40,119 bases of DNA. It comes from Candidatus Woesearchaeota archaeon (GTDB lineage: Archaea > Nanobdellota > Nanobdellia > Woesearchaeales > GW2011-AR4). Every line of letters begins with the position of its first letter. Within the stretch, counting starts at the first letter, position 1. Shown one piece after another: positions 4,036 to 33,846 of this stretch. The position numbers and the translations under genes were made by a program. The stretch is from positions 1 through 40,119 of the forward strand of contig JADHVE010000002.1 in the NCBI GenBank assembly GCA_016784195.1. The letters run 5' to 3'. Under the pieces are notes generated by a model. That model searched no databases. It saw nothing but the letters and a program-made list of their open reading frames with translations, and had not been told where the DNA came from.

Positions 4036-4767
4036 TCACTCACCAAACCTTCTCTCTCTTGCCTTAAACTCTTCAATTACCTTAATCAAATCCTCTTTCT
4101 CAAACTCAGGCCATAATTTATCAAGAAAAAACAGCTCAGAATAAGCACATTCCCATAAAAGAAAGTTACTCATCCTTTTCTCACCACCTGGCCTTATCAT
4201 AATGTCGGGTTCGCTTTGCAAATACAGATTTTCACTAACCAGCTTTTCATCAATGTCACCAATTTTAATCTCTTTACCCTCAGAGTTGTTGCCGGACGTA
4301 GTCCGAGCATTTTTAAATTTTTGAATTATTTTTTTGATGGAATCCACAATCTCAGCTCTGCCGCCATAGCCAACAGCAAAATTAACTATAAAATCAGTAT
4401 TGCCGGAAGTTTTTTCCATCAGTTCCTTCATATCTTGCCTTAAATTATCGGAAAACAGCTCCAGCCTACCAATAAAATTAATCTTTATCTTGCCCTCATT
4501 CACTCTTTTATCCTTTTTCAGCCTGTTAAACTGCTCCTTAAACAACCTCATTAAATAATCAACTTCCTTTTTAGGCCTGTTAAAATTCTCAGTAGAAAAT
4601 GTGTATAATGTAACTTCCTTAATTCCTAACTCTATGCACCAGTCAAACAGCTCCTCTACCTTTTTAGCCCCAACTTGATGGCCTTTGAACCTGTTGCCTG
4701 CCTTTTTTCCATACCTTCTGTTTCCATCTAAAATAATCGCAATATGCTTCGGGTTTTTTTCTTCCAT
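4036..4767 (-). CDS. uppS: Cis-prenyltransferase (undecaprenyl diphosphate synthase family)
   Basis: HIAIILDGNRRY, FSTENFNR, YGGRAEI, IRPGGEKRMSNFLLW. Confidence 0.95.
   Translation of the reverse strand: MEEKNPKHIAIILDGNRRYGKKAGNRFKGHQVGAKKVEELFDWCIELGIKEVTLYTFSTENFNRPKKEVDYLMRLFKEQFNRLKKDKRVNEGKIKINFIGRLELFSDNLRQDMKELMEKTSGNTDFIVNFAVGYGGRAEIVDSIKKIIQKFKNARTTSGNNSEGKEIKIGDIDEKLVSENLYLQSEPDIMIRPGGEKRMSNFLLWECAYSELFFLDKLWPEFEKEDLIKVIEEFKARERRFGE
4290..4310. repeat. Palindromic mini-element inside uppS
   Basis: TGC-CGGAC-GTA-GTCCG-A-GCAT hairpin, 21 nt and GC-rich, within an apparent insertion ARTTSGNNSEG. Confidence 0.6.
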
Positions 4768-4993
4768 TTTTTATTAATATTCGACCATGTCCACACCTGA
4801 TTGTGCTTCTGTTTGTGCTTTATTGGATTATTTTTATTGGTTTTTTATTTATAGGTCATGTTTGATTATACTTTTTTAATGGTTATTTTTATTGATTATG
4901 ACACTTAATTTTTATTGGATATTTTTTAATGATTTTATTATTGAATTTTTTTAAAATCCTGCTTATTTTTATTATTAAATTAATAATACAATT

Positions 4994-5518
4994 TTATTTA
5001 TATACCTTGCTAAAAATCCCTACAAAAACCTCTTTAGGAATCTCAATGCCAGCCTCAACAAAAGCCTTTGCTAGATTATAGCCATCTTCCCTTTCATCCC
5101 CTTTGAACCTGAACCTTAACAGCCTTCCCAGAGTAAACGAGTTCAATAATCCCTCATTCAACTTTAAACTAACCTCTCTATTGCCTTTTGAAACCTTCTT
5201 ATTTAAAAAATCAACAGAAAATTCACTTTTATCAACATCATACCTTAAAAACTCCCACTCAACAAGATTTTTTAATATCTTCTCCTTGTAATTTTTATCC
5301 AGGTACGCATCAATATTATCTATTTTTAAATATTCAAAAAAATCAACATCTTTTACCTTAGAGAAAGAATAAACCCTGCCTAAATACTTCTTTACCTTCT
5401 GTCTGGAGCCTTTGCCCTTTCCCTTAACACTCCGTTTATACCATTTATTATCTACAAGGTAAGCATAAGGATATATTTTCCCTTTTTTATTCTTGATATT
5501 CTTTACACGAATAAACAT
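4994..5518 (-). CDS. Putative DNA-binding protein with IS1634-transposase-like N-terminus, no DDE domain
   Basis: MFIRVK...YAYLVDNKW...RQKVKKYLGR resembles the IS1634-family N-terminal motif; the protein is only 174 aa. Confidence 0.6.
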   Translation of the reverse strand: MFIRVKNIKNKKGKIYPYAYLVDNKWYKRSVKGKGKGSRQKVKKYLGRVYSFSKVKDVDFFEYLKIDNIDAYLDKNYKEKILKNLVEWEFLRYDVDKSEFSVDFLNKKVSKGNREVSLKLNEGLLNSFTLGRLLRFRFKGDEREDGYNLAKAFVEAGIEIPKEVFVGIFSKVYK

Positions 5519-5526
5519 AGAATTAG

Positions 5527-5577
5527 TTAGGCACTATAAAATTATATAAACTTTTCGATTTAATGACTCTAAAACCC
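5527..5577. repeat. Duplicated motif, copy 1 (TTAGGCACTATAAAAT...CTCTAAAACCC)
   Basis: 16-nt and 11-nt exact blocks also occur at 11751 and 11792, with offsets of 40 and 41 nt. Confidence 0.75.
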
Positions 5578-5599
5578 CAAAAAAATGCCTTCTCAGGCC

Positions 5600-6190
5600 T
5601 TACATCTCCTTAACAACTTCACCATCAGGGCTTTTTTCAGAAAAAACCTCTGTCTGGAACTTATATACTCTGCAGGCATCAAAATCTTTCCAGGTATCAG
5701 CTGGCAATCCAGCCTTCATACATGTCTGCTGTAAAAACATCAAAGCATCCCATTTCTGTTCAATAGCCACAATAGGCAACAATAAACCGGAGTTAAAAAC
5801 ACCTCTAACCAACAAACCATCTTTGCCTATCTGTATCTGCCTTAAATAATCATCTGCATTCCTCACATTCATCACACTTGGATTAGTCAAAACAGACACA
5901 CTGATCGTTATTTGTTCAAGTTCTTCTCTGCCCAAAGGAGGAAACCTAGGATCAGAAGAAGCGCTAACAGCAGAATCCGCAACAGCCCGGTAAAGCGGAT
6001 AAGCAGCCTCGGTAATTCCTATACACCCTCTTAACACATTATTCTTCTCTAAAGTAACAAAAGCTCCGCTTAGCAATGAAAATTCTTTTTTAGTACCATC
6101 CTTGATTTTCAGATTTTTTTTGAAAACATAAGAAGAAATAGCCTGCCTTGCCAGCTTAACAAGTTTTGTGCCTTGCTCTAAGCTTAACAT
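5600..6190 (-). CDS. AMMECR1-domain protein
   Basis: GAFVTL, LRGCIG, DPRFPPL, GLLLP, KAGL. Confidence 0.93.
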   Translation of the reverse strand: MLSLEQGTKLVKLARQAISSYVFKKNLKIKDGTKKEFSLLSGAFVTLEKNNVLRGCIGITEAAYPLYRAVADSAVSASSDPRFPPLGREELEQITISVSVLTNPSVMNVRNADDYLRQIQIGKDGLLVRGVFNSGLLLPIVAIEQKWDALMFLQQTCMKAGLPADTWKDFDACRVYKFQTEVFSEKSPDGEVVKEM

Positions 6191-6300
6191 TGAACCTTAC
6201 CTCTTTTACCAGTCTTATTGACTAATTTAAGTACCCTCGGAATCACGAGCTTAAAGAAGCGCTTTATATACGGTTAGCGAGAGATATAAAACAGATATTA

Positions 6301-6582
6301 CTAAATACGTACTTCTTTTGAAAATTCTTTCTTGAATTTTTCACTTACCTTCTTCAGTCTTTGCACTGCAGCTAGTAAAGCGTTTTTTGCAGTTTCATTT
6401 CCATCTGTCTCGATAATCATCTTCGGCTTGCTCACCAAAGGGTGGCGTATACTATAAGTAGCAACCTTAATATGGCTGTCATTCCACATCTCCTTCTTTA
6501 AAACATTGCAAAAAGTATGGCCTAAGCCCCGACTTTCAAAAACAAGTTTATTTTTTTTATTCTCAAGAATATTTAATTTCAT
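6301..6582 (-). CDS. rpoL: RNA polymerase subunit L (Rpo11)
   Basis: GHTFCNVLK...ATYSIRHPL...IETDG, 93 aa. Confidence 0.92.
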   Translation of the reverse strand: MKLNILENKKNKLVFESRGLGHTFCNVLKKEMWNDSHIKVATYSIRHPLVSKPKMIIETDGNETAKNALLAAVQRLKKVSEKFKKEFSKEVRI

Positions 6583-6644
6583 TTTAATCTGAAAACCTAT
6601 ATTTATTTAAATAATTTTGCTTTTTAAAGTTTAATCAATTTAAC

Positions 6645-7286
6645 TTAATCTGTTTTCTCCAACCTAAAACACCCTACGTCAATATACTTTATCCTGCGGG
6701 AATGGAACTTATAAGTAGCTTTTAAGGGAAACTTGAAATACCATGCACCTGTAACTTTAAACTCATTTTTAGCAGAAAGTCTCTCTATAAATGCTTTACT
6801 CTCACTCTTATGGAAACTGTACACTACATTGCCTGTCTCAAAAGCCTTTTTTAAAAAAGCCAGGTCAGCATGTCTCACTTTAACCCCGAAAGGAGGATTT
6901 TCGATAACCGTATCGCACTTTTCATTAAACTCCTTAATATCTTCACATGTAAAAACAGCCTTGCCTTCTATATTGAACTCACTTTTCACCTTCTCAAGGC
7001 TCTTTTTAGCAATCTCTAAAGCTGAGCTATCACTATCCACAAAAAACACCTTTTTTGCCCCTAATAACAAGGCACCTATGCCTAATATTCCGGTTCCACA
7101 TCCCAGATCAGCACTCACTTTTTGCCTTATATCCCCATTTAGAAGCCCATTCCACAGTACAAATGCACCTATCTCACTGTCCATAGTATACTGCTCAACG
7201 CTCACTTTTGGCTCTTTAAAGCCTTCTAGCTTTGATAATGCTATTGCAAGCCCTGATTTTGACCTTATTTCCTTCATTTCGAACAC
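6645..7286 (-). CDS. METTL5-family RNA methyltransferase
   Basis: EQY, DLGCGTGILGIGA, NPPFG, VYSFH, C-terminal FH. Confidence 0.9.
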   Translation of the reverse strand: MFEMKEIRSKSGLAIALSKLEGFKEPKVSVEQYTMDSEIGAFVLWNGLLNGDIRQKVSADLGCGTGILGIGALLLGAKKVFFVDSDSSALEIAKKSLEKVKSEFNIEGKAVFTCEDIKEFNEKCDTVIENPPFGVKVRHADLAFLKKAFETGNVVYSFHKSESKAFIERLSAKNEFKVTGAWYFKFPLKATYKFHSRRIKYIDVGCFRLEKTD

Positions 7287-7517
7287 TCACTTCTCGCCAT
7301 TTTTGCCCTTATTTTAGCTATTTTCCAGCAATTCCATCCCTCACTATTACTTAAACTTTGCTCAAAATCCTTCCAAAGATTATTGCTTTCAGAACAAATA
7401 TAAAAACCTTGCCTTTCCACAAATCTGTTTTTATTCTTCATCATCTCTCTGAATTTTTTATCTCAACTAAAAAAATTAAAGTGCTATAACTCAAGTTCTT
7501 ATTCTCTTTATAGTCTC

Positions 7518-7685
7518 ATTCCCACAACATTCCCAGCAATTCCCTCGTCGGCAAAACATTTTCTTCATTCCCATGATAATCCCACCATATTCCCAAGACT
7601 ATCCCACCATAGTCCCACTATTTATAATTTTCTGTTCTGAAGATATTCCCCCCACGTTCCCAACTTATTCCCAACACAGTCCCAA
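7518..7685 (+). repeat. Helically phased TCCC(A) repeat array, 12 copies with 11-bp period
   Basis: TCCC starts at 7520, 7531, 7541, 7569, 7580, 7591, 7602, 7613, 7647, 7658, 7669 and 7680. Confidence 0.9.
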
Positions 7686-7726
7686 AAAACGAAATATTTA
7701 AATAAACCAGATTTATTTTATTAATT

Positions 7727-8440
7727 ATGTTCTGGAACCAAAACAAGATACAAAAAAAGATTTCAAATCTGCACAATCTTTTATCACAGTCATTCGGAAA
7801 TGTAAAGCAGGATACAGGCATCATCTTCCAGTGGCTGGACTACTTCCATAAAAAAAATTTAGAGCAGGAGCAAATAATCAAGAAGCTTCAGCTTGAGCTT
7901 TCTTACATACCTAAAACAAAAGAAGACCTAAAAAGAATCCTTGACAGCTATTATTCCTACGGGCCAATTTTAGAAAAAATCAATGATCTGAAAGAAAGAA
8001 TAGACTCTTCAAAAAGGGAGCGAATTATAGAAAATGAGCCAATCCTGAGAAAAATCAGAGAGCTTGATGAGCGTATAGAAGCAGTTAAACGGCAGGAATT
8101 AAGGCATATAGAAGAGCCAAAAGCTGCTTTAGAATTAGAATCAATAAGATCCAGATTAGGAAGATTAGAGCAAAAAAAGGATGCTATAAAGGAAAAAATA
8201 ATCAAGAGAATAACCAGAAACTCCAAAGATTATGTCAAGTCAATCTTAGTATCATACATCAAGAAATATGAAAAAATATCAGCCTTGCAGTTAAAGGAAA
8301 TGATTGTTGAAGAGCAGGGACTATGTTCAAAAAGCTCTTTCTACAGGATTCTGGAAGAAATAGAAATCATGAACGAAATAGCCACAATAAAGAAAGGCAA
8401 AGAAAAGCATTATATGGCTAAGAAGATAAAACTACAATAA
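7727..8440 (+). CDS. Coiled-coil protein with probable C-terminal winged helix
   Basis: Long charged heptad region, then ISALQLKEMIVEEQGLCSKSSFYRILEEIE plus a beta-hairpin. TTTAAATA box at 7697. Confidence 0.75.
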   Translation: MFWNQNKIQKKISNLHNLLSQSFGNVKQDTGIIFQWLDYFHKKNLEQEQIIKKLQLELSYIPKTKEDLKRILDSYYSYGPILEKINDLKERIDSSKRERIIENEPILRKIRELDERIEAVKRQELRHIEEPKAALELESIRSRLGRLEQKKDAIKEKIIKRITRNSKDYVKSILVSYIKKYEKISALQLKEMIVEEQGLCSKSSFYRILEEIEIMNEIATIKKGKEKHYMAKKIKLQ

Positions 8441-8498
8441 AGCATATACTGCAAAATAGAAATATATTTAAACAAGACTAATCTAGAAATCCTCGGGG

Positions 8499-9068
8499 GT
8501 GATTGCCATTTTTAGCAATTTTTTTAAGCAGATAAAATGCTCTTTTATAAAAAAAGAGAAGAACAAGAGCATTTTACAAAAGAAAATCTTAAATGAAATT
8601 AAAAATCAGTCTGAAGAGCATTTAAGGGCTATTAATGAGAATACAAACGAGATTCAGTCCAATTATGGCTATATTTCAGAAATTGAAAATAAGATGCATA
8701 AATTAACTGAAAGGATAGACCAGATGCAGCTATTCCTGCAATCCAACAGCAACTTTGTCATGGATAGGATAGAGAATTTTGAGATAAAGCCATTGACAAG
8801 AAACGAGCAGTATGTATTCCTCGTTTTATACGCTTTGGAAGAGGAAAAAGGCTTTGTATCTTACTTGGATATAGCAAGAAAAACAGGCTTCACTGAATCT
8901 TTAGTGCTGGACTATGTAGCCTCTGTTATTGAAAAAGGAGTCCCAATAATAAAGAGATACATCAACAGCAAAGCCTATCTAAAGCTGGATAAAGACTTCA
9001 AAAGGTTGCAGACAAAAGAAAACATCTTGTGCATAGATACAGCTCAAAAAGAGCTTATCAATTTTTAA
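8499..9068 (+). CDS. Coiled-coil protein with C-terminal winged helix
   Basis: Coiled coil, then LTRNEQYVFLVLY...SYLDIARKTGFTESLVLDYVASVIEKGVPI. Confidence 0.78.
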   Translation: MIAIFSNFFKQIKCSFIKKEKNKSILQKKILNEIKNQSEEHLRAINENTNEIQSNYGYISEIENKMHKLTERIDQMQLFLQSNSNFVMDRIENFEIKPLTRNEQYVFLVLYALEEEKGFVSYLDIARKTGFTESLVLDYVASVIEKGVPIIKRYINSKAYLKLDKDFKRLQTKENILCIDTAQKELINF

Positions 9069-9092
9069 CTTTTTTTTTCTTTCTAAAACCCA

Positions 9093-9138
9093 TGAAAAAC
9101 TTCGTTTTTCAGGTATTTTAAAAATCTTTGATGTTTCA
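9093..9138. repeat. Degenerate double-hairpin palindromic element
   Basis: TGAAAAAC-TTC-GTTTTTCA followed by TAAAAATC-TTT-GATGTTTCA; similar layout to 13106-13159. Confidence 0.5.
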
Positions 9139-9389
9139 AAACTTTTAATCAATTATTAAAACTTTTATTTCATACATATTTTAAAACTTTTAGTCATTGA
9201 CAATAACTTTTATTCTATTTATTGCTATATAGAAAATAAAAGAAACCAATTTTCCTAAAAAATCAACCAAATGACTTTCAACAATAAATCTATACCTTTT
9301 TGTGCAAAATCGAGCTTCAAAAGGATATTACATCAAAAACGCAACGATTCTACTACTTTTGTAGCATTTTAAGCCCATTTTCCATTAAA

Positions 9390-9419
9390 AACACAACATT
9401 TAAATACAAGTGTTGCGTT
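9390..9419. promoter_or_regulatory. 12-6-12 inverted repeat overlapping the TATA box; candidate recombinase core or binding site
   Basis: AACACAACATTT-AAATAC-AAGTGTTGCGTT; the arms match at 10 of 12 positions. Confidence 0.65.
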
Positions 9420-9444
9420 ATTTTAAGAAAATTGGTGTTTTGGA

Positions 9445-10110
9445 ATGGCAAAAAAATTCAACGAATATTACCTTAATTGGGATGAAATAAGCCAGATAAT
9501 TACAGCAGCAAAAAATCTTAAGGAAAGTGTTGTTCTAAAAATCTTAGCTCGAACAGGTATGCGTAGATTTGAGCTTGCAAATATCAAGGTTAAAAATGTT
9601 GATTTTGAAAGAAAGAGAATATTTATTGAGAAAGGTAAGGGAGCAAGCCAAAAAGACTCAAAATCAAGAACAGTTCCTGTTGATAATGACACTCTTCAGT
9701 CAATCAAATTCTACATAGAAAGCCGAAAAACAGGCTTTTTAATACAAAGCAACAACAAAATCAAGGACGGCATAAGTTTGAGCCAGATCAACAGAATTGT
9801 AGATAACTGTGCAAAAAAAGCCAATATAAAAAACCCCAATCCTAAGCTCAAAAACATGAACCCTCATATATTCCGCCATAGCTTCTCCAGGCTTAGCTTA
9901 GCAGCAGGAATACCCTTCAACATGGTGCAGAGAATAGCAGGCCATGCTGATGCCCGAACCACTCTACAGATGTACGGCATTCCCTCTATAACCGATACAC
10001 AGCAGCTATACGAGGAAAAGCTCGTTGAAAGGTTCAAAGAAAAGCCAAAGAGCAAAGAGGATGTTAAATTGACTAAGTTTACAGATAAAAACAATCAAAA
10101 ATCTTCTTGA
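9445..10110 (+). CDS. Xer-like tyrosine recombinase, catalytic domain only
   Basis: TGMRRFEL (R), GKG (K), HIFRHSF (HxxR), AGH and TTLQMY (Y) are all intact. 221 aa with no N-terminal core-binding domain. Confidence 0.92.
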   Translation: MAKKFNEYYLNWDEISQIITAAKNLKESVVLKILARTGMRRFELANIKVKNVDFERKRIFIEKGKGASQKDSKSRTVPVDNDTLQSIKFYIESRKTGFLIQSNNKIKDGISLSQINRIVDNCAKKANIKNPNPKLKNMNPHIFRHSFSRLSLAAGIPFNMVQRIAGHADARTTLQMYGIPSITDTQQLYEEKLVERFKEKPKSKEDVKLTKFTDKNNQKSS

Positions 10111-10158
10111 TATCCCTTAAACCAAAACAAATTTAAACAATCTCCTTAATTAATAAGT

Positions 10159-10851
10159 ATGGCAATCCAGATAATCCTGTTGGCGATATTAGGAATTCTT
10201 CTATTCTTACTGTTCTGGAAAATAACAAAAATGATTCTGAAAGCAATAACATTCACATTCTTAATCTTGTTATTATTGCTATCAATAACCGGATTTTTCG
10301 TCTACAAAGATATCAAAGACTTCCAGAATAATATTGGAGAAAAGCCTGTTCTGTTTGTTTTAACAGATCAAAATAAAGTCCTAACAGCAATAAGCATGGA
10401 AAAATTAGAACTTGAAGAAGGTTTTTTTGATAAAATATCAGAAGCAACATCCCCTGAAGAAATAGAAAAGCTATCATCTTACTATCAAAATAAAGACTAC
10501 AGCTCAATGCTCAACAACAATTACAAACTGGTATTAACCGACATAAGATTCATAGAAAATGGGTTAAAAGACAGCTTTGTTATAGGCGATAAAAGCGAAT
10601 TAGGAAAAGGCTTAACAAAAAAAGAAATCATTGATGTTCTAAAAGCAGAAAACCCTTTGAAAATCTCAGATTTTGAAGAAACAAACCCGGATAAAATAAG
10701 GAACTTCTTCTTTATCTTTTCTTTTGCAACAATTATCAAAGAAAATGGTCCTTTTTTCATGATAAAAGAGATGAAAAACAACAACATAGAAATCTATAAA
10801 GAGCCTTTCAGCCTCAAATTAATAAAGAATATCCCAAAAACTAAGAACTGA
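10159..10851 (+). CDS. Hypothetical membrane-anchored protein
   Basis: Two N-terminal hydrophobic helices followed by a soluble domain. Confidence 0.7.
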   Translation: MAIQIILLAILGILLFLLFWKITKMILKAITFTFLILLLLLSITGFFVYKDIKDFQNNIGEKPVLFVLTDQNKVLTAISMEKLELEEGFFDKISEATSPEEIEKLSSYYQNKDYSSMLNNNYKLVLTDIRFIENGLKDSFVIGDKSELGKGLTKKEIIDVLKAENPLKISDFEETNPDKIRNFFFIFSFATIIKENGPFFMIKEMKNNNIEIYKEPFSLKLIKNIPKTKN

Positions 10852-11173
10852 TACAAACACCCATCTCATCTGCTATTTTGCCCGTTAAACGGCATTTAAA
10901 GCCCTCTGGACAGCCAAAACCAGCTATACCACCACATTCACACTGCACTTGACACATTTCAATACAGAAATCAGCATCTGTTCCACCACAAGGGCTTCCG
11001 CATTCATTCCATTTGCCATTAACTTCTCTACATCTTTGTTTAGTAATACCATTAAAAGCTGTTTCTTCATCCATACCAGTATCATCTTCAGAAGGCTCAT
11101 GCACAACAGTTTCTTCCACACATCCAGCCAGAAAACCCATCAAAATTATTAAAAACAAGCCTGTTTTTTTCAT
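10841..11173 (-). CDS. Cysteine-rich lipoprotein
   Basis: Signal peptide with LAGC lipobox; 10 Cys in the C-terminal domain. Confidence 0.78.
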   Translation of the reverse strand: MKKTGLFLIILMGFLAGCVEETVVHEPSEDDTGMDEETAFNGITKQRCREVNGKWNECGSPCGGTDADFCIEMCQVQCECGGIAGFGCPEGFKCRLTGKIADEMGVCISS

Positions 11174-11750: not shown

Positions 11751-11802
11751 TTAGGCACTATAAAATAAGTAATCTATTTTCCATTTAAAACCTCTAAAAC
11801 CC
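11751..11802. repeat. Duplicated motif, copy 2
   Basis: Matches 5527-5577 in the same orientation. Confidence 0.75.
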
Positions 11803-11821
11803 TAAAATTTTTCAGTTACAG

Positions 11822-13630
11822 TTATTCTACTCCACTCAACTTCTTCCTATACAGTTCATTATCAGGTTCTAAACTAACAGATTTTCTCAACTCTTCCAAA
11901 GCCTTTCCCCTTTCACCTAAAAAATCATACAACACTCCAAGATTATAGTGAGCGTCAGCATAATCCTTATCAAGGATTATAGCTGTTTTAAAAGCCTCCA
12001 AAGAAGCATCAAAAGAGCCTACCTGCCCGTAAATTGTCCCTAAATCATTATAGCCTTTAGCATACTTAGGCTTTAAAACAACCGTCTTGTTCAGCATCAA
12101 AATAGCCTTTTCATACTCTCCAGTTTCAGCATACACTAATCCTAATTTATTGTAAGTTTTGTAGTACTGATTAAATGTTAAAGCAGTCTCAAACTCTATT
12201 ATTGAATAATTATACAAGCCAACCTTAGCCAAAGCAACCCCCAGATTAGTATGTGCTTTGTAATTATCCGGCTTTAATTCAATTGCTTTGCTAAACTCAG
12301 TTATAGCCTCTTTATACCTGCCCATCCTTTCATAAGTGAATCCAAGATTATCATGAGCCCCTGAATTATTTGGGCTATCCTTGACAGTCTCCGTCCATAA
12401 AGTTAAATTATCTTTCCACTCAGCATTCCTTTTTACGACCGCAAAAGAATAAGATAAAAACAGCAGAACAATAAAAACAACTAATCCTATTCTTATGTTT
12501 TTTTTGATATCCAGATTATAGATTTTGTCAAAAGCAAAAGCAAGCAGCAAACAAAATCCTAATGAAGGCAGATACAAATACCTCTCAGCCATTAAAACAA
12601 CCAATGGAACTATATTAGACACAGGCAATAAAGTAATAAAAAACCAAAACACGCAAAAAAAAGTTATTTTATTAAAAAGCCTTATTGTAATGAAGACAAT
12701 AAAGATTAAAATAAGTATTGGCAATAAAACATCAAAAATTGAATTTGCAATAGCCACATCATGAAATAATTTCAAGTCAAATGGAAATATCAACAGTAAA
12801 ATATAGCCGATAAAAACCTTAGTCATTGTTATCCCGGTAAAATACCATCCCTGGCTTGCATATTCAGGAACTCTGCCATACATGCCTAAAACAAAAAACC
12901 TGAAAAAAACATAAATACCAGCTATAATAAAAAAAGGCGAATATCTCTTAAATAAACTTTTGAAATTATCCTTGCTGAACCTTTCCTTGTTGAAAGAAAA
13001 CTCATACAATATAATGATTAAAGGTAAAGTTATGACTTCTTCTGACGCTAATAATCCAATAAAAAATATTATAACAGAGAGAATAAGATAATTTAATTTT
13101 TTATTTGTAAAAAATCTTTTAGATTTTTGAGCATGCTCGGAAATCTCCGATTTCCGACATTTAGAAAACCAAACATAAAAATAAAATGCCAACAAATACA
13201 AAAAGATTCCCAGTAAGTCAAAGCCGGCAGTCATATTAGTGACTCTGCCAGTATGCACTGGATGCAGAGCAAAAAGCAAAGAAGCAATTAAAGCAATATT
13301 CCTTTTATTGATAATCTTTAAAATTATAAAATAGGCTAATATGGATATCATTATGTGAAGAAACAAGGCATAAAGGTGGTATCCAAACGGGTTATCCTTA
13401 AAAACAGAGTAAACAACTGCATAACTGATGCTTCTTAAAGGCCTATACAATCCGTCTATACTGCTTGTAAAAAAACCCAAAACATTGGAAAAAGACTTTA
13501 TTTCAGTATTCTCCAAAATAAACATATAGTCATCCCAGACAAAATCATTAATGAAAATGTTCCCATAAGCTGTTATTGATAAGAATATGATTAAGAAGAC
13601 AGCAATAAGATTTTTACTTATTTTTTTCAT
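11822..13630 (-). CDS. TMTC-like GT-C membrane glycosyltransferase with C-terminal TPRs
   Basis: FVWDD, YRPL, LFALHPVHT, MAERYLYLPS, RNAEW, followed by several TPR repeats. Confidence 0.88.
   Translation of the reverse strand: MKKISKNLIAVFLIIFLSITAYGNIFINDFVWDDYMFILENTEIKSFSNVLGFFTSSIDGLYRPLRSISYAVVYSVFKDNPFGYHLYALFLHIMISILAYFIILKIINKRNIALIASLLFALHPVHTGRVTNMTAGFDLLGIFLYLLAFYFYVWFSKCRKSEISEHAQKSKRFFTNKKLNYLILSVIIFFIGLLASEEVITLPLIIILYEFSFNKERFSKDNFKSLFKRYSPFFIIAGIYVFFRFFVLGMYGRVPEYASQGWYFTGITMTKVFIGYILLLIFPFDLKLFHDVAIANSIFDVLLPILILIFIVFITIRLFNKITFFCVFWFFITLLPVSNIVPLVVLMAERYLYLPSLGFCLLLAFAFDKIYNLDIKKNIRIGLVVFIVLLFLSYSFAVVKRNAEWKDNLTLWTETVKDSPNNSGAHDNLGFTYERMGRYKEAITEFSKAIELKPDNYKAHTNLGVALAKVGLYNYSIIEFETALTFNQYYKTYNKLGLVYAETGEYEKAILMLNKTVVLKPKYAKGYNDLGTIYGQVGSFDASLEAFKTAIILDKDYADAHYNLGVLYDFLGERGKALEELRKSVSLEPDNELYRKKLSGVE
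13106..13159. repeat. 54-nt double-hairpin palindrome inserted in frame in the TPR/GT-C gene
   Basis: Minus strand TG-TCGGAAATC-GGA-GATTTCCGA-GCATGC-TCAAAAATCT-AAA-AGATTTTTTA-CA, encoding CRKSEISEHAQKSKRFFT between two TM helices. Confidence 0.8.
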
Positions 13631-17434: not shown

Positions 17435-17536
17435 GCCGCAGTGGCACAACCTGGTACTGCGCAAGCTTGGAGTTTCAAGCAATGCTAGATAGCTTGTTTC
17501 CTTCGGGATATCCCGGTTCAAATCCGGGCTGCGGCG
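17435..17536 (+). tRNA. tRNA-Ser(GGA) with an intron at 37/38 (17473-17490)
   Basis: GCCGCAG/CTGCGGC acceptor, CAAGC/GCTTG anticodon stem, GGA at 17469-17471, long variable arm, G73. Confidence 0.93.
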
Positions 17537-23786: not shown

Positions 23787-23909
23787 GCCAGGATGACGGA
23801 GCTCGGTTAATCGTGTTCGCCTCGAATAGCATAAATGTTTTTCATTTATAATTTTCAAAAGAGAGCGAATGTCCTTCGGGACACGCAGGTTCAAATCCTG
23901 CTCCTGGCG
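23787..23909 (+). tRNA. tRNA-Ser(CGA) with an intron at 37/38 (about 23827-23863)
   Basis: GCCAGGA/TCCTGGC acceptor, TTCGC/GCGAA anticodon stem, TGTCC-TTCG-GGACA variable arm. The BHB is weak. Confidence 0.88.
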
Positions 23910-23916
23910 TAAAATA

Positions 23917-24192: not shown

Positions 24193-24194
24193 AG

Positions 24195-25688: not shown

Positions 25689-25955
25689 ATTAGTTGTTAC
25701 TTACAAGTGATTTATAAAACTTTTGATTATCACCACCATAAAAATTGAATATAATATCCACGCTTGTTAGTTTTGTTTTTGGTTATTAAGTTCCGAAAAC
25801 CTACGTCCGTAGGACTCTGGGGCGTTATTTTACATGGGTTTTTTGTTTGTGTTAAAGGGAGGATGGATATATTGTATTTAACGATTGATGTACTTACTGT
25901 TGAATAGCAATAGATGGAAAGATTTATTAACTCAACTCTAGTCCTTACTTTTTAT

Positions 25956-27191: not shown

Positions 27192-27465
27192 AAATTTGTT
27201 TTTTCTATAATCTTTTTTTACTCATCTTTTCTTTTTTCGTTAAACTTTCAGGGAGTTTATTCCACCTAGTCCTGTCTGATATGCGCATTTTGTATAGGTG
27301 AGATATGCCATATTTAAAGTTTGATGTTGTTTAGCCCAGAACTCTTACTATCTTATTATCTTCAAGCCCCTGATTCTCATTATTAGTTTTTAGCCCCTTA
27401 TTCCGTTTTAGTTTATAATAAAAGATATTGATTTTTTTATATGGAATTGATCATTTAAAATTTTA

Positions 27466-27984
27466 CTATTTTTTCTTGATACGAGAAAAATTTTTAATTG
27501 GATTTCCCCATATCTTCGAATTTGGAATAGTAACAAATACCTGATCATCAGTTATAACAATACATGAAGATATACCCATTTCTTTGACAGTACCCTTTAT
27601 GCTTACAACCTCGACAGATTCTCCAATTTTCATTGGTTTGTTTATTAGAAGGAATATGCCGGCAGTAAGGTTAGATAAAACATCTTTGGTTGCGAACCCA
27701 ATAATAATCCCCATGGCACCCAAGCCAGCAACGAAACCAGTCACGTTGAAACCAAGATTGCTTAAGACTATTATGATAAAAATAACCCAAAGAAATATTT
27801 TAACTATTTTTTCTATAAACACTTCCAAGGTTCGATCAAGATCTACTTTATCAAAAAAGTGAGTTACATATTTACTAATAATATGAATTGCAACAAACCC
27901 ACCAATAAAAATTATAATAAAAAAGAGCCATTGAGTATAATGTCCAAAAAAATAATTTTGTATATTAGCCAATATTTCTATCAT
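27466..27984 (-). CDS. Short MscS-family mechanosensitive channel
   Basis: GIIIGFATKDVLSNLTAG, GTVKEMG, IPNSKIW. Confidence 0.9.
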   Translation of the reverse strand: MIEILANIQNYFFGHYTQWLFFIIIFIGGFVAIHIISKYVTHFFDKVDLDRTLEVFIEKIVKIFLWVIFIIIVLSNLGFNVTGFVAGLGAMGIIIGFATKDVLSNLTAGIFLLINKPMKIGESVEVVSIKGTVKEMGISSCIVITDDQVFVTIPNSKIWGNPIKNFSRIKKK

Positions 27985-28216
27985 TTTTGCCCCTATTTTA
28001 TTGAGTATCCAATAATTTTTATTTGTTTTTAGTAAATGTTTTTATTCCTAAGTCAAAGTCTTCATTAGATAATTCTTCAACCAATTCTTGTTATTTAATA
28101 TTCTCCAAATCATCTTTATCCATTATAAGCGTCCTCTGATCATTAAAAATAACATAATCCTATATAAATGTTAACATTAAAGATAATTCCACATATAAGT
28201 ATTCTCTTAACAAATA

Positions 28217-28263
28217 TCGCACGAAGTGAGTGAATATGTGCGTAGCACTAGGAGGCTCAGTTC
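28217..28263 (+). repeat. Twin GNA-triloop hairpin repeat
   Basis: TCG-CAC-GAA-GTG-AGTGAATAT-GTGC-GTA-GCAC-TAGGAGGCTCAGTTC, homologous to 17707-17755. Confidence 0.7.
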
Positions 28264-28301
28264 TATTTGAGAATCAAAGAGGAAGGCTAAAAATTATTTA
28301 T

Positions 28302-29600
28302 TTACCGCCTTCTATGACTATGTTTAAATCTACTCCCAAATTTAGCATGTTTAGAAAATGATCTTTTATTTTTTGATATGGGGTTAGATTTATGTTTAAA
28401 TCTGGAATTTCTACCAACCTGTTTTTTTGGCGGCGGTTTAGCTGCTGCACCTACTGCGTTTTTAGCAGTTTCTGAATGAAAGGTATGGTCCATAACTTCT
28501 ATTTTTTGCCTTATTAATTTCTCAATATCTCTAAGATAATTCCTTTCATCGGCTGCGCAAAATGAAAATGCTGTTCCATCAGCCCCTGCTCTGGCAGTTC
28601 TTCCAATTCTGTGAATATAGCTTTCCGGTTCGTTTGGAAGTTCAAAATTTATAACATGTGAAATATTATCTATATCTATTCCCCGCGCAGCAATATCAGT
28701 TGCAACTAATACTTTAATTCTGCCATTTTTGAAATTTTTAATAGCTTGATTTCTCGCATTTTGTGATTTATTTCCATGAATTGCATCAGAGAATATATTA
28801 TTTTTGCTAAGAAATAATGCTAATTTATTTGCCCTATGTTTTGTTCGAGTGAAAATTAAAACACGGGTAAGATGTTTCTGTCTTAGAAGTTCGAGTAATA
28901 AATCTTCTTTTGAAGGTTGGTCAATAAAAAATAGGTATTGTTTTACACTCTCAACTGTTGTTGCCTGAGGTGCTACTTCAACATGAATAGGATTTTTAAG
29001 TAAAGTTTTTGCAAGATTATTAATTTCCCGGGACATTGTTGCTGAGAAAAATAATGTCTGTCTTTTTTGTGGTAATCTTGTGATTATTTTTTTAATATCA
29101 TTGATGAAACCCATATCAAGCATTCTATCTGCTTCATCTAATACAAAAAATTCTATATTATTAAGACTAAGTTTTCTTTGATTCATCAAATCTAGTAACC
29201 TACCCGGTGTTGCCACAAGAATATCTACCCCACGAGCTAATGCATGAACTTGTTTTCCCTGGCTCACCCCTCCAAAAATTACAGTGTGTTTAAATTTAAG
29301 AAACTCACCGTATGCAGAAAAACTTTCTCCAATTTGTGCAGCAAGTTCTCGAGTTGGAGCAAGTACTAAAGTCTTAATTATTCTTGGATATTTCTCAGTC
29401 ATCCTTTGCAGTATAGGTAATACAAATGCTGCGGTTTTACCAGTACCTGTTTGTGCAATACCTATCAAATCTTTGCCTAGTAATAAATCAGGGATTGATT
29501 TTGATTGTATTGGTGTAGGTATAGTATACCCTTGTTTAGTTAGCGCTCTTTCGAGTGGAGGTATCAAATTCAGATCTTTAAATAGTAAGGTATTATCCAT
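28302..29600 (-). CDS. DEAD-box RNA helicase, RhlE-like
   Basis: Q motif, [29 protein letters not shown], basic tail. Confidence 0.95.
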
Positions 29601-29669
29601 TATAGCCTAAAATATGCATTGAGTTATAAATGTAAGCTTATTATTGATGTAACTAATGGTGCAAATATA

Positions 29670-30209
29670 TTAATTTAGTTCTCTTTTTAAAATTTTATGG
29701 GCAGAATTTATTTTCTTAAATTTTTCTGTGTTTCCATTGGGCATATCAGGGTGATGTTCTTTTGAAAGATTTTTGTAGTTTTTGTGCATTGTTTCAAAAT
29801 CTGTTGAGGATTCTTCTACACCAAGAATTTCTCTTGCATTTTTTCTTTGTTCAATAATATCATTATCTTCCACAAATAATTTTAAGAATTCTTCCTGAGT
29901 TATTTTATCCTCACTTAAAAGATCAATGAAATACTTAATAACCTGTGCAACCATAGCTAAGTTTTCAACAAACTTTGTAGATCTATTATAACTAAAGAAT
30001 AAATGTTCATTCCACATATACCATGAAGCTGAGGCCTGCGCTTTTCGTATTGTAATACTCTCTAGGGGAATATCCATATCGTCTTCAGTCAACCCAAAAA
30101 CTTTTAGGTAGCCTATTATCTTGTTCTTATATTGCAAAGCTCTTCGATTGTACGAGTCACGAATAGCTATTTGTTTGAAATCATAACCTTTAATATTTAT
30201 CATAGACAT
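29670..30209 (-). CDS. Protein with C-terminal J domain
   Basis: AREILGV...YKNLSKEHHPD...FKKINSAH. Confidence 0.88.
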   Translation of the reverse strand: MSMINIKGYDFKQIAIRDSYNRRALQYKNKIIGYLKVFGLTEDDMDIPLESITIRKAQASASWYMWNEHLFFSYNRSTKFVENLAMVAQVIKYFIDLLSEDKITQEEFLKLFVEDNDIIEQRKNAREILGVEESSTDFETMHKNYKNLSKEHHPDMPNGNTEKFKKINSAHKILKRELN

Positions 30210-30262
30210 CGTTATCCTTATCCTATTTATAAGGTTAACTGTAGCTATTTAAACACAATCTA

Positions 30263-30305
30263 GTATAACATCGGAAATTCCTGTTAGATGAATCATCCCC
30301 TACTA
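30263..30305 (+). repeat. Spacer-repeat copy
   Basis: GTATAAC-ATCGGAAATTCCT-GTTAGAT. Confidence 0.75.
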
Positions 30306-30507
30306 GCGTGCAGTTCAGTTATGATTTTATCGTCAAAGAAGCAGATATTTAACAATTTACAGAATGTTAAAAAATTAAGTTGCTAAGCGTAGCGGGGGTG
30401 AGTCAAGAAAAAGACGTCTTTCACAGAGTGAAACAATACGTTTAGTAAAAGAAGAAAAGGGCAAAAACAAAAAATTTATATTGGTTTTCTCATTTTAAAG
30501 TAATAAA

Positions 30508-31074
30508 ATGTCTGCTAATGGTAATCAACCTCACTTCACGTATAATCTCCATATAACCAATACTGGAGGATATCATCATGATGTTAGTAATTTAACTCTT
30601 CCATTTATATTAACTGTAAATAATCCGTTGAACCTTACTACACAAGATACAACGAAAGAACCAATAAATGTTGGCAATGTAGTAAGGGCGAGCCATGGTG
30701 GGGGTTTAGATCCAAAGAGAAGGGAATCTCATCTTGTTCTTGAAAGCCAATTAAGCGAAGATGAGCTTGGAAAGCTTTTTGAAAATGGTAAATATCTAGA
30801 TGTTAATTCTTATGGTCCGGATTTTAAATTTAATATTTTTGCTGAAAGAAAAGGTGAAGGCAGAATACAAATCAAAGGTGTAACATTTGCTAAACCATTT
30901 CAACCAGGTGATTATGTAAGTATTGATGAGTATAGTGAGATAGGAAGAGTAAAAAGAATTAGTTTTCCCATTGGACCAGGAGTAAAAGAAACTAATCCAA
31001 CTGCTCTGGTGCGAACAATATGGGATATTGAAACCTTAGTTAAACTTCATGATAGATACAGGGGTTGGAAGTAA
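30508..31074 (+). CDS. Hypothetical protein
   Basis: 188 aa ORF with TTTATA about 30 nt upstream. Confidence 0.65.
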   Translation: MSANGNQPHFTYNLHITNTGGYHHDVSNLTLPFILTVNNPLNLTTQDTTKEPINVGNVVRASHGGGLDPKRRESHLVLESQLSEDELGKLFENGKYLDVNSYGPDFKFNIFAERKGEGRIQIKGVTFAKPFQPGDYVSIDEYSEIGRVKRISFPIGPGVKETNPTALVRTIWDIETLVKLHDRYRGWK

Positions 31075-31102
31075 TTGTTTTTGCTCTCTTAACGTTTTTA
31101 GC

Positions 31103-31187
31103 CTTTTTCTCGATTTTGTCTAATATCGGAAATTCCCGTTAAACTCTTTCCCCCTACGAGGTGAGGTCAAACTTCGTCCGAAAAGTA
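31103..31187 (+). repeat. Spacer-repeat copy, about 85 nt
   Basis: CTTTTTCTCGATT, TAATATCGGAAATTCCCGTTAAACTCTTT, AAACTTCGTCCGAAAAGTA. Confidence 0.8.
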
Positions 31188-31250
31188 GAGAAAAAGACCG
31201 TCCAATCAAGCATGAAGTGCTATCAAGGAAAAGAATAAAAGTGGAAAAAG

Positions 31251-31796
31251 TTAAAAAAAGCAGAATATACCTATAAGAATAAATAAAATACCGGCTATAT
31301 ATGAAATAACTCTTCGATTTATTTTTTGTACAATAAACTTACCTAAGTATACAGCTATTATTGATAAAATGATTAATACAGAGATTACACCTAAAAAAAC
31401 CATCAATGTATCGTATTTTGTGGCAAATAATCCTGAAGCAATTTGAGTCTTATCTCCCATTTCTGATATTAAAATAATTGCAAATCCTGTTAGGAAGGGT
31501 TTTTTTAAATCACATTTAGATTCATCTTCCTTATTGTTTACTAAATTGGTTATCCCAAAAATAATAAAAATAATTCCTGAGATTATTTTTATATAATATA
31601 TTGGAACAATATTTGTAATGTAATTTCCTAAAAGGATAGCCAAACCATCTGTTATAATGAATGCTAAAATAACACCGGCCAATAATGGGAGGTATTTTTT
31701 TGTTTTGGAAGCTAAACAAATTACAGCAAGTTGGGTCTTATCACCTAGTTCTGCTAGTCCCACAGCAATAAATGGAATAATAAAATCTTGCATCAT
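31251..31796 (-). CDS. TMEM165/GDT1-family transporter
   Basis: Two E(L/M)GDKTQ motifs. Confidence 0.94.
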   Translation of the reverse strand: MMQDFIIPFIAVGLAELGDKTQLAVICLASKTKKYLPLLAGVILAFIITDGLAILLGNYITNIVPIYYIKIISGIIFIIFGITNLVNNKEDESKCDLKKPFLTGFAIILISEMGDKTQIASGLFATKYDTLMVFLGVISVLIILSIIAVYLGKFIVQKINRRVISYIAGILFILIGIFCFF

Positions 31797-31858
31797 AATT
31801 GACTATATCAAGCGATTATTAATAAATTTAACTTTTTCCGCTATTCTAATTTTCATGT

Positions 31859-31941
31859 CTTTTTCTCGATTAGCATAACATCGCAATTGTTGTTAAACTC
31901 TTTGCCCATACCTAGTATGTAAAAATTTCGACCGAAAAGTA
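31859..31941 (+). repeat. Spacer-repeat copy, about 83 nt
   Basis: CTTTTTCTCGATT, TAACATCGCAATTGTTGTTAAACTCTTT, AAATTTCGACCGAAAAGTA. Confidence 0.8.
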
Positions 31942-32093
31942 AAATTTCCATTTCCAATAGATTCTACCGAAGGCAGACTAAAGTTTAATGGTCTGTTCAG
32001 TCTATCATTAGAGCGTTAGCGGTACTTCAAGAGAAATAATCAAAGTGCACACTCAATAAGGGATAATAACTAATAAAACAAATTGGAATTGAC

Positions 32094-32771
32094 TCATAGG
32101 CATTTAAGGTAAGTACCTTCGTTTAATTTAGAATAACCTTGTGTGATTAATGCTTCTCTAATTGAATCTACTTTATCAGAGGTGGGGTCTATAATAAGTG
32201 CACCTAAGGATTTATTTGATTGGAATAATCTTTTTGATACAACTTCTAAGGTAGGCAAATCTGCTGAAAATCTTTGGTCTGTTAAATATTTTAGAAAGTT
32301 TATACAGAAAATTACATCATAACTATCCGGAGGAATGTCTTGAATTCCTAACACACCAAATCTAAGATTTTTGGCAATATCAGGTTTAGATTCAACCATT
32401 GTTTTTCCATTTGAACCAAGTTCTCTAAAATATCTCAGTCTATCTTCTGCAGTCAGATTTGACCAATGATACTCATAATTTGAATGTGGATCACCAATAA
32501 TCTGACCTGAAGTTGGACAAATAAAATATTGACCCATTTTAGCAGCTTCAATGGCTTCCCTATCTGTATCAAATCCTGACATATTATATTTATATCCTTC
32601 TTTTTCTAGTCCTATTGCAATTGCCAATGCCTCTATGCCAGTAGAACAAGGAACTGTGGCTACTTGTAATGGAATTACATTTGCAAATATTGGAAGTACT
32701 TCTTCTTTCAATGATTCAATAAGGGAGGGATGCCTGTTAAATCCTGTGATTCTCCACACTTTTTCTGCCAT
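32094..32771 (-). CDS. CheR-like SAM methyltransferase
   Basis: PCSTGIEALAIA, GFD, AKMGQY and YDVIFCINFLKYL resemble CheR motifs. Confidence 0.75.
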   Translation of the reverse strand: MAEKVWRITGFNRHPSLIESLKEEVLPIFANVIPLQVATVPCSTGIEALAIAIGLEKEGYKYNMSGFDTDREAIEAAKMGQYFICPTSGQIIGDPHSNYEYHWSNLTAEDRLRYFRELGSNGKTMVESKPDIAKNLRFGVLGIQDIPPDSYDVIFCINFLKYLTDQRFSADLPTLEVVSKRLFQSNKSLGALIIDPTSDKVDSIREALITQGYSKLNEGTYLKCL

Positions 32772-33111
32772 AAATTAAATACAAAAGAGATCATATATAA
32801 ACCTTTCTATCTGTTACTACTATATAATAACATTATTATTAACTGAAGTCTTTCTGAGTGTGCCCCTATCTATAATAAATCATTTGCAGAGCAAAAGACA
32901 ATATGTGATTTAGGACGAATAGACCTGTTTTTAACTATTTATAACTCAAATTTTATTGAACTTAACATGTACAACCAGTTAGGGGTGCACCATTTATAAT
33001 ATGGTTAAGTGAAATAGATTTAGAAAATTTAAGATACTATCCGATAGAAATTGTAGGGCTTGAGCCTGAAAAAGGTTTAATTTAAATATTCTAGTTGATT
33101 AATGGACAAAA

Positions 33112-33702
33112 ATGATAGAATCCATAATTTTTAGCAATGATTTTTTTTTGTATGTAGTTGTCCCTTTTTTAATATTTATCAGTAGAATTATTGACGTCAG
33201 CATTGGAACAATTAGGATCATTTTTGTTTCAAAAGGATATAAAATTTATGCTCCAATCCTCGGTTTTTTTGAGGTATTAATCTGGTTGATAGTCATTAGT
33301 CAGATTATGAATAATCTTTCGAATTTTTATTGTTATTTTGCATATGCTGCTGGTTTTGCTGCTGGAAATTTTGTTGGAATGGTAATTGAGGAAAAATTAT
33401 CTATAGGTAAATCTATAGTCAGGATAATTACAGGCAGAGATTCTTCATCTTTATTGAAAAATCTAAAAGATGCGAGATTTACTGTAACAAGCATGGGCGC
33501 AGAAAGTCCTGATGGAAATGTTCGATCAATATTCACGGTAGTAAAAAAGCAGGATATCCCTAGGGTTATCCAAATAATCAAAGATTTTAATCCCAAGGCA
33601 TTCTATACCCTAGAAGACGTAAGATATGCATATGAAGGTCCTACTATAAATCCGGAAAGGAAGCGTTTTGGGATGATGCAGTTTTTTAGGAAAGGGAAAT
33701 AG
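33112..33702 (+). CDS. DUF2179/UPF0316 membrane protein
   Basis: RIIDVSIGTIR, GFFEVLIW, YAAGFAAGNFVG, NPKAF. Confidence 0.88.
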   Translation: MIESIIFSNDFFLYVVVPFLIFISRIIDVSIGTIRIIFVSKGYKIYAPILGFFEVLIWLIVISQIMNNLSNFYCYFAYAAGFAAGNFVGMVIEEKLSIGKSIVRIITGRDSSSLLKNLKDARFTVTSMGAESPDGNVRSIFTVVKKQDIPRVIQIIKDFNPKAFYTLEDVRYAYEGPTINPERKRFGMMQFFRKGK

Positions 33703-33728
33703 ATTTTTTATTCTTTAATATACAATGA

Positions 33729-33846
33729 TGGACCAGCCGGGATTTGAATTTCCGTGCTGAAAACACTTTTCGAGCATCCCGGAGTCTTTCCCAGTCCAGT
33801 ATCTAAAAAGCCAAGGGAACACGATACCGGATTTCGCCACTGGCCC
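33729..33846 (-). tRNA. tRNA-Ala(GGC) with two introns: 37/38 (33794-33808) and 53/54 (33749-33777)
   Basis: GGGCCAG/CTGGTCC with G3:U70, TTCCC/GGGAA anticodon stem. The 53/54 intron has BHB central helix TCCG/CGGA. Confidence 0.9.

Follow-up and report, generated by a model that had tools for sequence, protein, structure and literature searches.

What are the short hairpins beginning with ATGCTC that interrupt two protein genes and a transfer RNA (tRNA) gene on a single contig of a Candidatus Woesearchaeota archaeon, and do they belong together? The stretch that raises this question, referred to here as the window, comprises the 40,119 nucleotides (nt) of contig JADHVE010000002.1 (assembly GCA_016784195.1). 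An initial annotation of the window had singled out four hairpin arms, one in the gene of an undecaprenyl diphosphate synthase (UppS), two joined to each other in the gene of a presumed membrane glycosyltransferase and one in an intron of a tRNA-Ala gene, and had treated them as copies of one very small mobile palindrome. The four arms are present with the sequences, coordinates and strands that it gave; the single family to which it assigned them does not hold, as the models built for the arms fail to recognize one another. Our findings indicate instead that the window probably contains one copy each of two distinct, ultra-small, non-coding hairpin insertion families that are spread in Woesearchaeota-type genomes of the DPANN archaea. 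Both families read as elements of the kind represented by the Rickettsia palindromic elements (RPEs) and the repetitive extragenic palindromes (REPs), placed in frame in protein genes.

The window is contig C67 of a genome (G000) of 1.09 Mb and 33.7% G+C that is assembled in 73 contigs and is 88.8% complete. Three covariance models underlie the assignments that follow: R1, built from 8 copies, describes the full two-hairpin element of family 1; R2 describes a single arm of that element; and R3, built from 11 copies in other genomes with the UppS copy of the window excluded, describes the first hairpin of family 2. Family 1 was surveyed in 41 related genomes, 24 of them from the same taxonomic family, and family 2 in 301 genomes of the order. 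Because the family-1 element is nearly its own reverse complement, matches to R1 were counted on both strands.

The two joined arms form one family-1 element, laid out as TGT, a first hairpin (13110-13128), the centre GAGCATGCTC (13129-13138), a second hairpin (13137-13157) and CA. R1 scores 77.9 bits on positions 13103-13162 (E=3.3e-13), which places the element in family 1, and R2 scores 50.5 and 34.2 bits on its two arms. The 18 residues that it contributes to the host protein are absent from 11/11 orthologues, and relative to the gene of a congener (G001) the difference is exactly 54 nt, which begin with TGT, end with ACA and lie between the codons AAA and GAG/AAT. Three of the orthologues carry 2-10 different residues at the same place, and the loop therefore tolerates changes in length. 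An unpublished genome (G012) supplies one row each to this orthologue set and to that of UppS discussed below (L017 and L029), without which the counts drop to 10/10 and 12/12, respectively. The host itself matches only TPR families in Pfam, which confirms the C-terminal part of the protein and leaves its earlier label, a GT-C glycosyltransferase, unconfirmed. A 233-nt contig from an independent, fourth study bridges positions 13016-13248 with no differences. Three runs that may be the source of the assembly have contigs that end within the element; over 13118-13154 their coverage climbs about 10- to 40-fold, with a wide variety of adjoining sequences, as would be expected of a repeat shared by the whole community. 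No joint skipping the element was found in the contigs of these runs, a comparison in which rare empty alleles would be invisible.

The same double hairpin recurs elsewhere. A listing of the genome's ATGCTC sites followed by a hairpin revealed near-identical doublets on contigs C9, C17 and C47, and a nhmmer profile made from three family-1 copies, followed by R1, brought the number of family-1 loci in this genome to about 15-19. Among the 41 relatives R1 matches 26, including 20 of the 24 in the same taxonomic family; the number of matches in a genome ranges from 0 to 62, and many are situated at contig ends. The consensus reads TGTC, a hairpin of the form TCRRAAA..TTTYYGA, the linker GCATGC, a second hairpin of the same kind and GACA, and what remains near-invariant across genera are the hairpin feet and the linkers (TGTC RRAAA..TTTYY GAGCATGCTC RRAAA..TTTYY GACA). 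Tip length is variable, from a triloop up to about 60 nt, and the elements therefore measure 51-145 nt, most commonly 54 nt. Compensatory changes occur at 7/18 stem pairs among 8 copies. Three pattern matches were met on viral contigs, none of them a full family-1 element. In one relative (G033), copies identical to one another follow head to tail with no spacers, the junction reading GACA·TGTC (a raised dot marks a junction here and below). The arrays there occupy G033:C9:37309-37476 (L183) and G033:C10:23664-23900 (L187), and by our own reading of the translation a ParA-like gene adjoins one of them.

An intergenic site that is filled in G001 and empty in G000 gives the insertion signature. 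The filled site reads GAAA·TGTC..GACA·TATAAAA against GAAATATAAAA in the empty one, or, in a wider alignment, ..AAGAAA·TGTC..GACA·TATAAAA.. against ..AAGAAATATAAAA.., so that 52 nt were inserted with exact ends and no duplicated target. A flank profile of 50 family-1 elements with the ends pooled has A at position -3 in 79/100, followed by W and then A before TGTC. The resulting AWA·TWT context is best read as a target preference, since it is already present in the empty site. Direct repeats of at least 3 nt flank only 2/50 elements, and together with the filled and empty pair this count speaks against a classical miniature inverted-repeat transposable element (MITE) of the DDE type, for which a target-site duplication would be expected.

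Insertion into genes is not peculiar to the copy in the window. A second coding copy in the same genome adds 60 nt, or 20 residues, to a DegT-like protein encoded on contig C2 and is absent from 9/9 orthologues, and in G025 a 54-nt copy adds 18 residues to ribosomal protein uL3 that 11/11 orthologues lack. Further coding copies, recognized from open reading frames (ORFs) and Pfam matches only, lie in an IGPS-PRAI fusion (G001), in an NAD-dependent epimerase and in ribosomal protein S3Ae (both G033) and, at the N-terminus, ahead of the S13 domain in G040. All coding copies are in one phase, in which GAG CAT GCT CAA AAA gives ..SEHAQK.., and both orientations of the element yield this phase because its centre is a palindrome. 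By our own count, 7/7 coding copies are multiples of 3 nt long (54, 54, 54, 54, 54, 60 and 75), against 21/45 of the others. At two loci, L058 (G040:C10) and L048 (G008:C15), the sequence AATTTCCGACA directly precedes a family-1 copy and repeats the 3' end of the element itself; in G040 this repeat falls in the first codons of ribosomal protein S13, which read NFRH..DFRH.

Structured repeats of this kind could also be sites that serve the host, such as two-way terminators, small RNAs or protein-binding sites, held in place by selection and immobile. The distribution of family 1 offers such a reading some support, in that the copies are mostly intergenic, with two of them between convergent genes, the hairpins carry T5 runs on both strands and the stems covary. 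Selected, immobile sites would hardly be expected, however, inside unrelated coding sequences whose orthologues lack them, nor to be filled in one species and empty in its congener, to stand in head-to-tail arrays and at contig ends, or to range from none to dozens among relatives, and no Rfam family matches the repeat elements at gathering score. Even with the conservation of the family-1 core across the order, to which we return below, we regard an exclusively host-functional origin as quite improbable. The more specific reading of the elements as C/D-box small RNAs was ruled out, as the C box is absent and the would-be guides are palindromic.

The hairpin in UppS belongs to a second family. 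It reads ATGCTCGGAC-TAC-GTCCGGCA, followed by a decayed second mini-hairpin (AACAACTCTGAGGGT). Comparison with the DNA of G001 and G002 sets the bounds of the insertion at 33 nt, or 11 codons, of about 61% G+C by our own count, and the 11 extra residues are absent in 13/13 orthologues. The view that both coding palindromes are insertions is thus borne out by the orthologue alignments, as are the preservation of frame in both and the length of 54 nt reported for the doublet; the length of 21 nt reported for the UppS copy is too short. The AT of its ATGCTC lies within an AAT codon, and the aligned codon is AAT in G002 and GAC in G001. R3 scores 37.4 bits on the hairpin at 4287-4312 of the minus strand (E=1.2e-8), which assigns it to family 2. 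No second significant copy was found in this genome, where blastn-short returned only chance words of 10-16 nt and R3 likewise found none.

Relatives of the UppS hairpin came to light in a pattern scan of related genomes, which recovered hairpins of the same type with changed loops and compensated stems (GGAC/GTCC, GAAC/GTTC and GGAT/ATCC), while a reversed control pattern gave nothing. Across the order, family 2 amounts to 13 sites, which are spread over 6/301 genomes (G050 and G272 have four apiece); the reversed control yielded 0. Its consensus of about 34 nt consists of two mini-hairpins, ATGCTC-GRAC-nnn-GTYC-GGCAC-CAAC-TCC-GTTGG, and most copies lie in frame in unrelated ORFs, where they read (N/D)ARTTSGTNSVG. 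By our own reading of the translations, a metallophosphoesterase-like protein, a dihydroorotase-like protein and a PP-loop ATPase are among the hosts, as are several proteins rich in lysine and glutamate. The G000 orthologues of two of these hosts are gapped at the element, by 12 residues in the dihydroorotase-like protein and by 11 in the PP-loop ATPase; for a third host the gap falls in a variable region and covers 18 residues, those of the element plus a few adjacent ones. Taken together, each family lies in frame in unrelated genes whose checked orthologues lack it, in three cases for family 1 and in four for family 2, the pattern known from RPEs, and the confirmed coding copies of both families are free of stop codons and are all multiples of 3 nt. 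At L221, L224 and L226 (G125 and G272), ATGCTC(G/A)CA directly precedes family-2 copies and resembles the two ends of the element without its hairpin; a footprint and a target motif are both conceivable.

Could the two families nevertheless be one, with single units in UppS and in the tRNA-Ala intron and a doublet in the membrane protein, and could such a unit seed the bulge-helix-bulge (BHB) introns of tRNA genes? Every arm has ATGCTC, a short hairpin and ..CA at its end, and families 1 and 2 further agree in a ..GNCA end and in the codon phase of ATGCTC; these features may reflect distant kinship or a common recognition site. The models nevertheless keep the arms apart. R2 omits the UppS hairpin at E<=10 and R3 omits the arms at 13106-13159, R1 lists none of the UppS, tRNA and 9093 sites, and the nhmmer profile of family 1 returns nothing at these three sites at E<=100. 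ATGCTC followed by a perfect triloop hairpin of at least 5 bp occurs at 10/645 genome sites, where about 3.4 are predicted from the mean rate over other hexamers; 6 of the 10 are family-1 arms, and the remaining 4 include the UppS and tRNA sites. ATGCTCRRAAA occurs 17 times in the genome, 8 of them outside family 1, where about 13 would be expected by chance. The A/T-rich double hairpin at 9093-9138, although it reads as quoted, is not the degenerate intergenic copy for which it was taken: it has no nhmmer match at E<=100, no R1 match at E<=1 and, by blastn-short of 9086-9145, no similar sequence in the genome, and R2 gives 9094-9110 only 8.5 bits (E=2.3), for the hairpin alone.

The tRNA intron fares no better as a member. 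ARAGORN detects the tRNA-Ala once the 29-nt insert at 33749-33777 is removed, and the cloverleaf that it then proposes contains another intron, of 15 nt, in the anticodon loop; the T-arm intron is thus 29 nt long and not 23 nt as first annotated. ARAGORN places the loop intron such that the anticodon reads GGA (Ser), and the intron-free G001 orthologue has the loop TTGGCTT and the anticodon GGC and is called Ala; with its cloverleaf, G3:U70 and anticodon GGC, the gene in the window is that of a tRNA-Ala. As judged from its sequence, the T-arm intron can form a BHB motif, with a 4-bp TCCG/CGGA helix, the bulges GG·A and AA·T and an inner TGC/GCA helix. R2 passes over its hairpin at E<=10, as does R3 genome-wide at E<=5; searched in the window, R3 gives it 10.2 bits (E=1), with the next matches at 9.2 and 8.8 bits, so that it scores at chance and does not qualify for family 2. 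A blastn-short search of the genome with the intron returned nothing beyond chance words of 10-16 nt. In G002 the 53/54 site likewise contains an intron, which also terminates in CGGAAA at its 3' side and has another hairpin inside, and the intron position is therefore older than the hairpin now found in it, leaving the proposed seeding of BHB introns unsupported. G001 has no intron at 53/54. Its tRNA-Ala(GGC) gene (L236, G001:C19:28655-28775, minus strand) lacks both introns of the window and has an 18-nt insert of its own, ACCTCATTGAGGCCCTTA, right after the anticodon stem, and intron positions therefore differ between congeners. The three other intron-bearing tRNAs of the window, which the initial annotation had wished to see compared with the motif, carry it in 0/3 cases, and a scan of 24 relatives with the pattern of the tRNA hairpin gave 5 matches against 2 for the control, 3 of the 5 belonging to an unrelated repeat of G007.

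One observation points the other way. A homologous intron in a tRNA-Ala(CGC)-like gene of G013, ATGCTCG..CGGCAC, has the flanks of the family-2 first hairpin, and R3 gives it 13.3 bits (E=0.026 in 8 kb), a score that is significant in this small search space only. We consider it unlikely that the interior of the T-arm intron is of family-2-like origin, and a single ATGCTC-hairpin-CA family embracing both coding copies and the intron appears still less probable; the hairpins of the tRNA intron and of 9093-9138 are better explained as unrelated look-alikes. What survives of the original proposal is a small mobile palindrome that is tolerated in protein loops, in that the insertions sit at places tolerant of length change and recur in unrelated genes, with two elements in place of one. 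There is a bolder version, in which ATGCTC and a hairpin form the recognition module of a superfamily of 33-150 nt in Woesearchaeales that is served by one enzyme, colonises loops of essential proteins, including ribosomal ones, and replaces the interiors of already existing BHB tRNA introns (at 53/54 of tRNA-Ala in G000 and G013). It is an unlikely scenario, yet if true, a DNA transposon would be linked to the way in which archaeal tRNA introns are gained and turn over.

The abundance of introns raises the converse question of whether the coding copies are themselves introns that the tRNA splicing endonuclease cuts from messenger RNA, for which the Cbf5 pre-mRNA intron of Crenarchaeota provides a precedent. 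The lineage is rich in non-canonical tRNA introns, and the coding copies bear the likeness to the tRNA intron that the initial annotation had pointed out. In our own inspection, for which two 3-nt bulges and a 4-bp helix were sought, neither element formed a BHB motif, alone or with its variable flanks. A family-1 fold that pairs the inner arms was also tried as a splice motif and rejected, as its triloops would face each other rather than be staggered by 4 bp. Moreover, the coding copies of family 2 and all 7 of family 1 lack stop codons, have lengths divisible by three and are read in a single phase. These properties would be expected of translated sequence and are needless in sequence that is spliced out, and they therefore count against splicing. 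We judge this possibility very improbable.

The introns have practical consequences for the detection of tRNA genes in this genome. ARAGORN reports 0 tRNA genes in the window, although all four are present, each with an intron, and Rfam at E<=10 finds no tRNA match in 33600-34000. Rfam does identify the three other intron-bearing tRNAs of the window (Table 1). In the whole genome only 18 tRNAs exceed its threshold, the majority with lengths of more than 80 nt, and on account of this low number and these lengths many tRNA genes of the genome are probably hidden by introns.

Table 1. Coordinates of the elements, host genes and tRNA genes of the window discussed in the text.
Feature	Coordinates	Strand	Description
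Family-2 element	4276..4310	-	33-nt in-frame insertion (4276-4308) and adjoining AT; reads ARTTSGNNSEG
Host gene of the family-2 copy	4036..4767	-	Undecaprenyl/cis-prenyl diphosphate synthase (UppS family), Pfam PF01255, E=8e-77
Two A/T-rich hairpins	9093..9138	+	25 nt behind the end of ORF 8499-9068
Host gene of the family-1 copy	11822..13630	-	602 aa; multi-pass membrane N-terminal part, C-terminal TPR repeats
Family-1 complete copy	13106..13159	.	Two-hairpin element of 54 nt; open frame on the minus strand reads CRKSEISEHAQKSKRFFT
tRNA-Ala(GGC), two introns	33729..33846	-	About 15 nt at 37/38 (about 33794-33808) and 29 nt at 53/54 (33749-33777); G3:U70
T-arm intron	33749..33777	-	ATGCTCGAAAAGTGTTTTCAGCACGGAAA; 29 nt
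Intron-bearing tRNA (Rfam)	1122..1237	-	
Intron-bearing tRNA (Rfam)	17435..17536	+	
Intron-bearing tRNA (Rfam)	23787..23909	+	

With these alternatives in mind, the two hairpin insertion families may be pictured as follows. The elements would be non-autonomous and would spread as DNA, their conserved hairpin feet would be recognized by an enzyme supplied in trans, and those copies that fall in frame into tolerant loops would survive and be translated as short, mostly polar loops. The lack of duplication upon insertion and the conservation of the hairpin feet suggest that such an enzyme would read folded single strands. A single-strand, hairpin-specific Y1/HUH transposase of the IS200/IS605 and REP-associated tyrosine transposase (RAYT) kind is a possible, though tentative, candidate. 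Genes for Y1_Tnp (PF01797) occur in 20/41 genomes, and by our own tally in 17/26 of the genomes with family 1 against 3/15 of those without, a link that the relatedness of the genomes overstates. The HUH/RAYT-like enzyme that the initial annotation had proposed to look for thus has four potential representatives in G000 itself, encoded on contigs C16, C50, C17 and C2, but a full element lies beside none of the 6 Y1 loci considered here. Some 300 nt upstream of one of the four, the Y1 gene at C16:5399-5779, stands an A/T-rich double hairpin (C16:5045-5103, L066) with a family-1-like layout in which the conserved linkers are absent, and GC-rich hairpins lie between the two.

Several observations weigh against insertion families that are moved in this manner, and we acknowledge them here together. 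Proteins within this order are only about 50% identical, yet the core of family 1 is conserved across it; such conservation is unusual for a selfish repeat and could point to a host function. At the six Y1 loci, neither a full family-1 arm nor a family-2 copy adjoins, the partial, hairpin-only matches reaching 11-15 bits. Four genomes rich in family 1, namely G033 (62 matches), G015 (36), G007 (27) and G024 (20), have no Y1 match, and neither does the closed genome G039 with its 7 family-1 matches. No autonomous parent or mobilising gene was found; the genes between two G033 elements, tried as a transposase parent, were set aside when their translations, by our own reading and with no family search run, looked like a nucleotidyltransferase and its partner and a ParA-like ATPase. 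IS200/IS605 elements recognize a tetranucleotide on one side only, whereas both the family-1 target, AWA·TWT on both sides, and the element itself are symmetric. The single family-2 copy in G000 gives no pointer to its source, and the translation of the inserts is suggested by their open frames.

Comparison with known systems places the two families close to, yet apart from, several of them. With RPEs, as these are described, they share a palindromic repeat that is dispersed between genes and lies in frame in unrelated housekeeping genes, adding a short peptide while the protein is kept. RPEs are presented in PMC10969869 as in-frame palindromic insertions of about 150 bp. Their hosts are obligate intracellular bacteria, whereas the elements here measure 33-54 nt (up to 145) and reside in DPANN archaea. 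Family 1 further differs in its two-fold symmetry, by which either orientation encodes the same ..SEHAQK.. peptide. We know of no mobilising enzyme for RPEs. The REPs, their composites (bacterial interspersed mosaic elements, BIMEs, and REPINs) and the RAYTs resemble the present case in hairpins of about 35 nt that are often doublets, in compensated stems and conserved feet, in tens of copies per genome and in the presence of Y1_Tnp in the same genomes. By definition REPs lie outside genes; they carry a conserved GTAG head and are found on either side of their RAYT gene. The copies described here occur in coding sequence, carry the motifs TGTC/GACA and GAGCATGCTC, and stand as full copies beside 0/6 Y1 loci.

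The IS200/IS605 family and its miniature derivatives share hairpin ends and insertion without target-site duplication, and archaeal hosts are known; the miniature derivatives in Haloquadratum have been called palindrome-associated transposable elements. Apart from the one-sided target noted above, the difference is that a full-length parent sharing these ends was not found and that there is no room for cleavage and guide regions beyond the hairpins, which extend to the very ends. Classical MITEs, such as Correia/NEMIS and the Sulfolobus MITEs, are similarly short, non-autonomous and numerous and have terminal inverted repeats, but the present elements show no target-site duplication and their sizes are at or below the usual lower limit. 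Archaeal BHB tRNA introns at non-canonical positions are the natural comparison for the tRNA-Ala, whose 29-nt intron at 53/54 can, by its sequence, form the motif and has a relative in G013; the repeat families do not form this motif, and the T-arm intron scores in neither family. Transposed tRNA introns have reportedly been described from Thermoproteales, by Fujishima in 2010. Where PMC10969869 treats archaeal MITEs, it names only Sulfolobus, Halobacterium, Haloquadratum and Desulfurococcus, with Haloquadratum walsbyi listed among the bearers, besides 'several other' genomes. The 2024 census in PMC11602168 reports a Woesearchaea genome among the MITE-richest archaea, with 105 automatic MITE calls per Mb. 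Our literature searches returned no description of these elements in DPANN archaea, and the automatic calls of that census may include them.

Other repeats were met in these genomes. A third repeat family of G000, about 130-175 nt long and 80-90% identical, occurs at C10:18424-18598, C10:26949-27121, C55:11224-11383, C55:20073-20165 and C64:628-755, with partial matches on C29, C22 and C8; its hairpins are TGAAAATG-CAAAA-CATTTTCA and CAAAAATC-TTT-GATTTTTG. The unrelated multi-hairpin repeat of G007 mentioned above is present in three copies on three contigs (L230, L233 and L234) and reads CAGCTGAA-ATGCACGAAAC-nnn-GTTTCGGCAC-CCTGAAAACC-TGG-TTTTCATGG-AATCAGCTG.

In summary, an attractive over-generalization has been corrected, as membership of the tRNA intron in the system is not demonstrated, and what takes its place is in-frame palindromic insertion, a phenomenon best documented in Rickettsia, free-standing in DPANN archaea. 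At 11-18 codons the elements are three to five times smaller than RPEs, and their hosts include essential genes, among them those of uL3, S3Ae, UppS and enzymes of pyrimidine and tryptophan synthesis. The finding advises caution when protein genes and tRNAs are predicted by software in this lineage, and it supplies a defined substrate with which to seek the enzyme that moves such mini-hairpins. For the biology of these archaea, two families of this kind would provide a concrete and datable origin for lineage-specific protein loops in reduced genomes.

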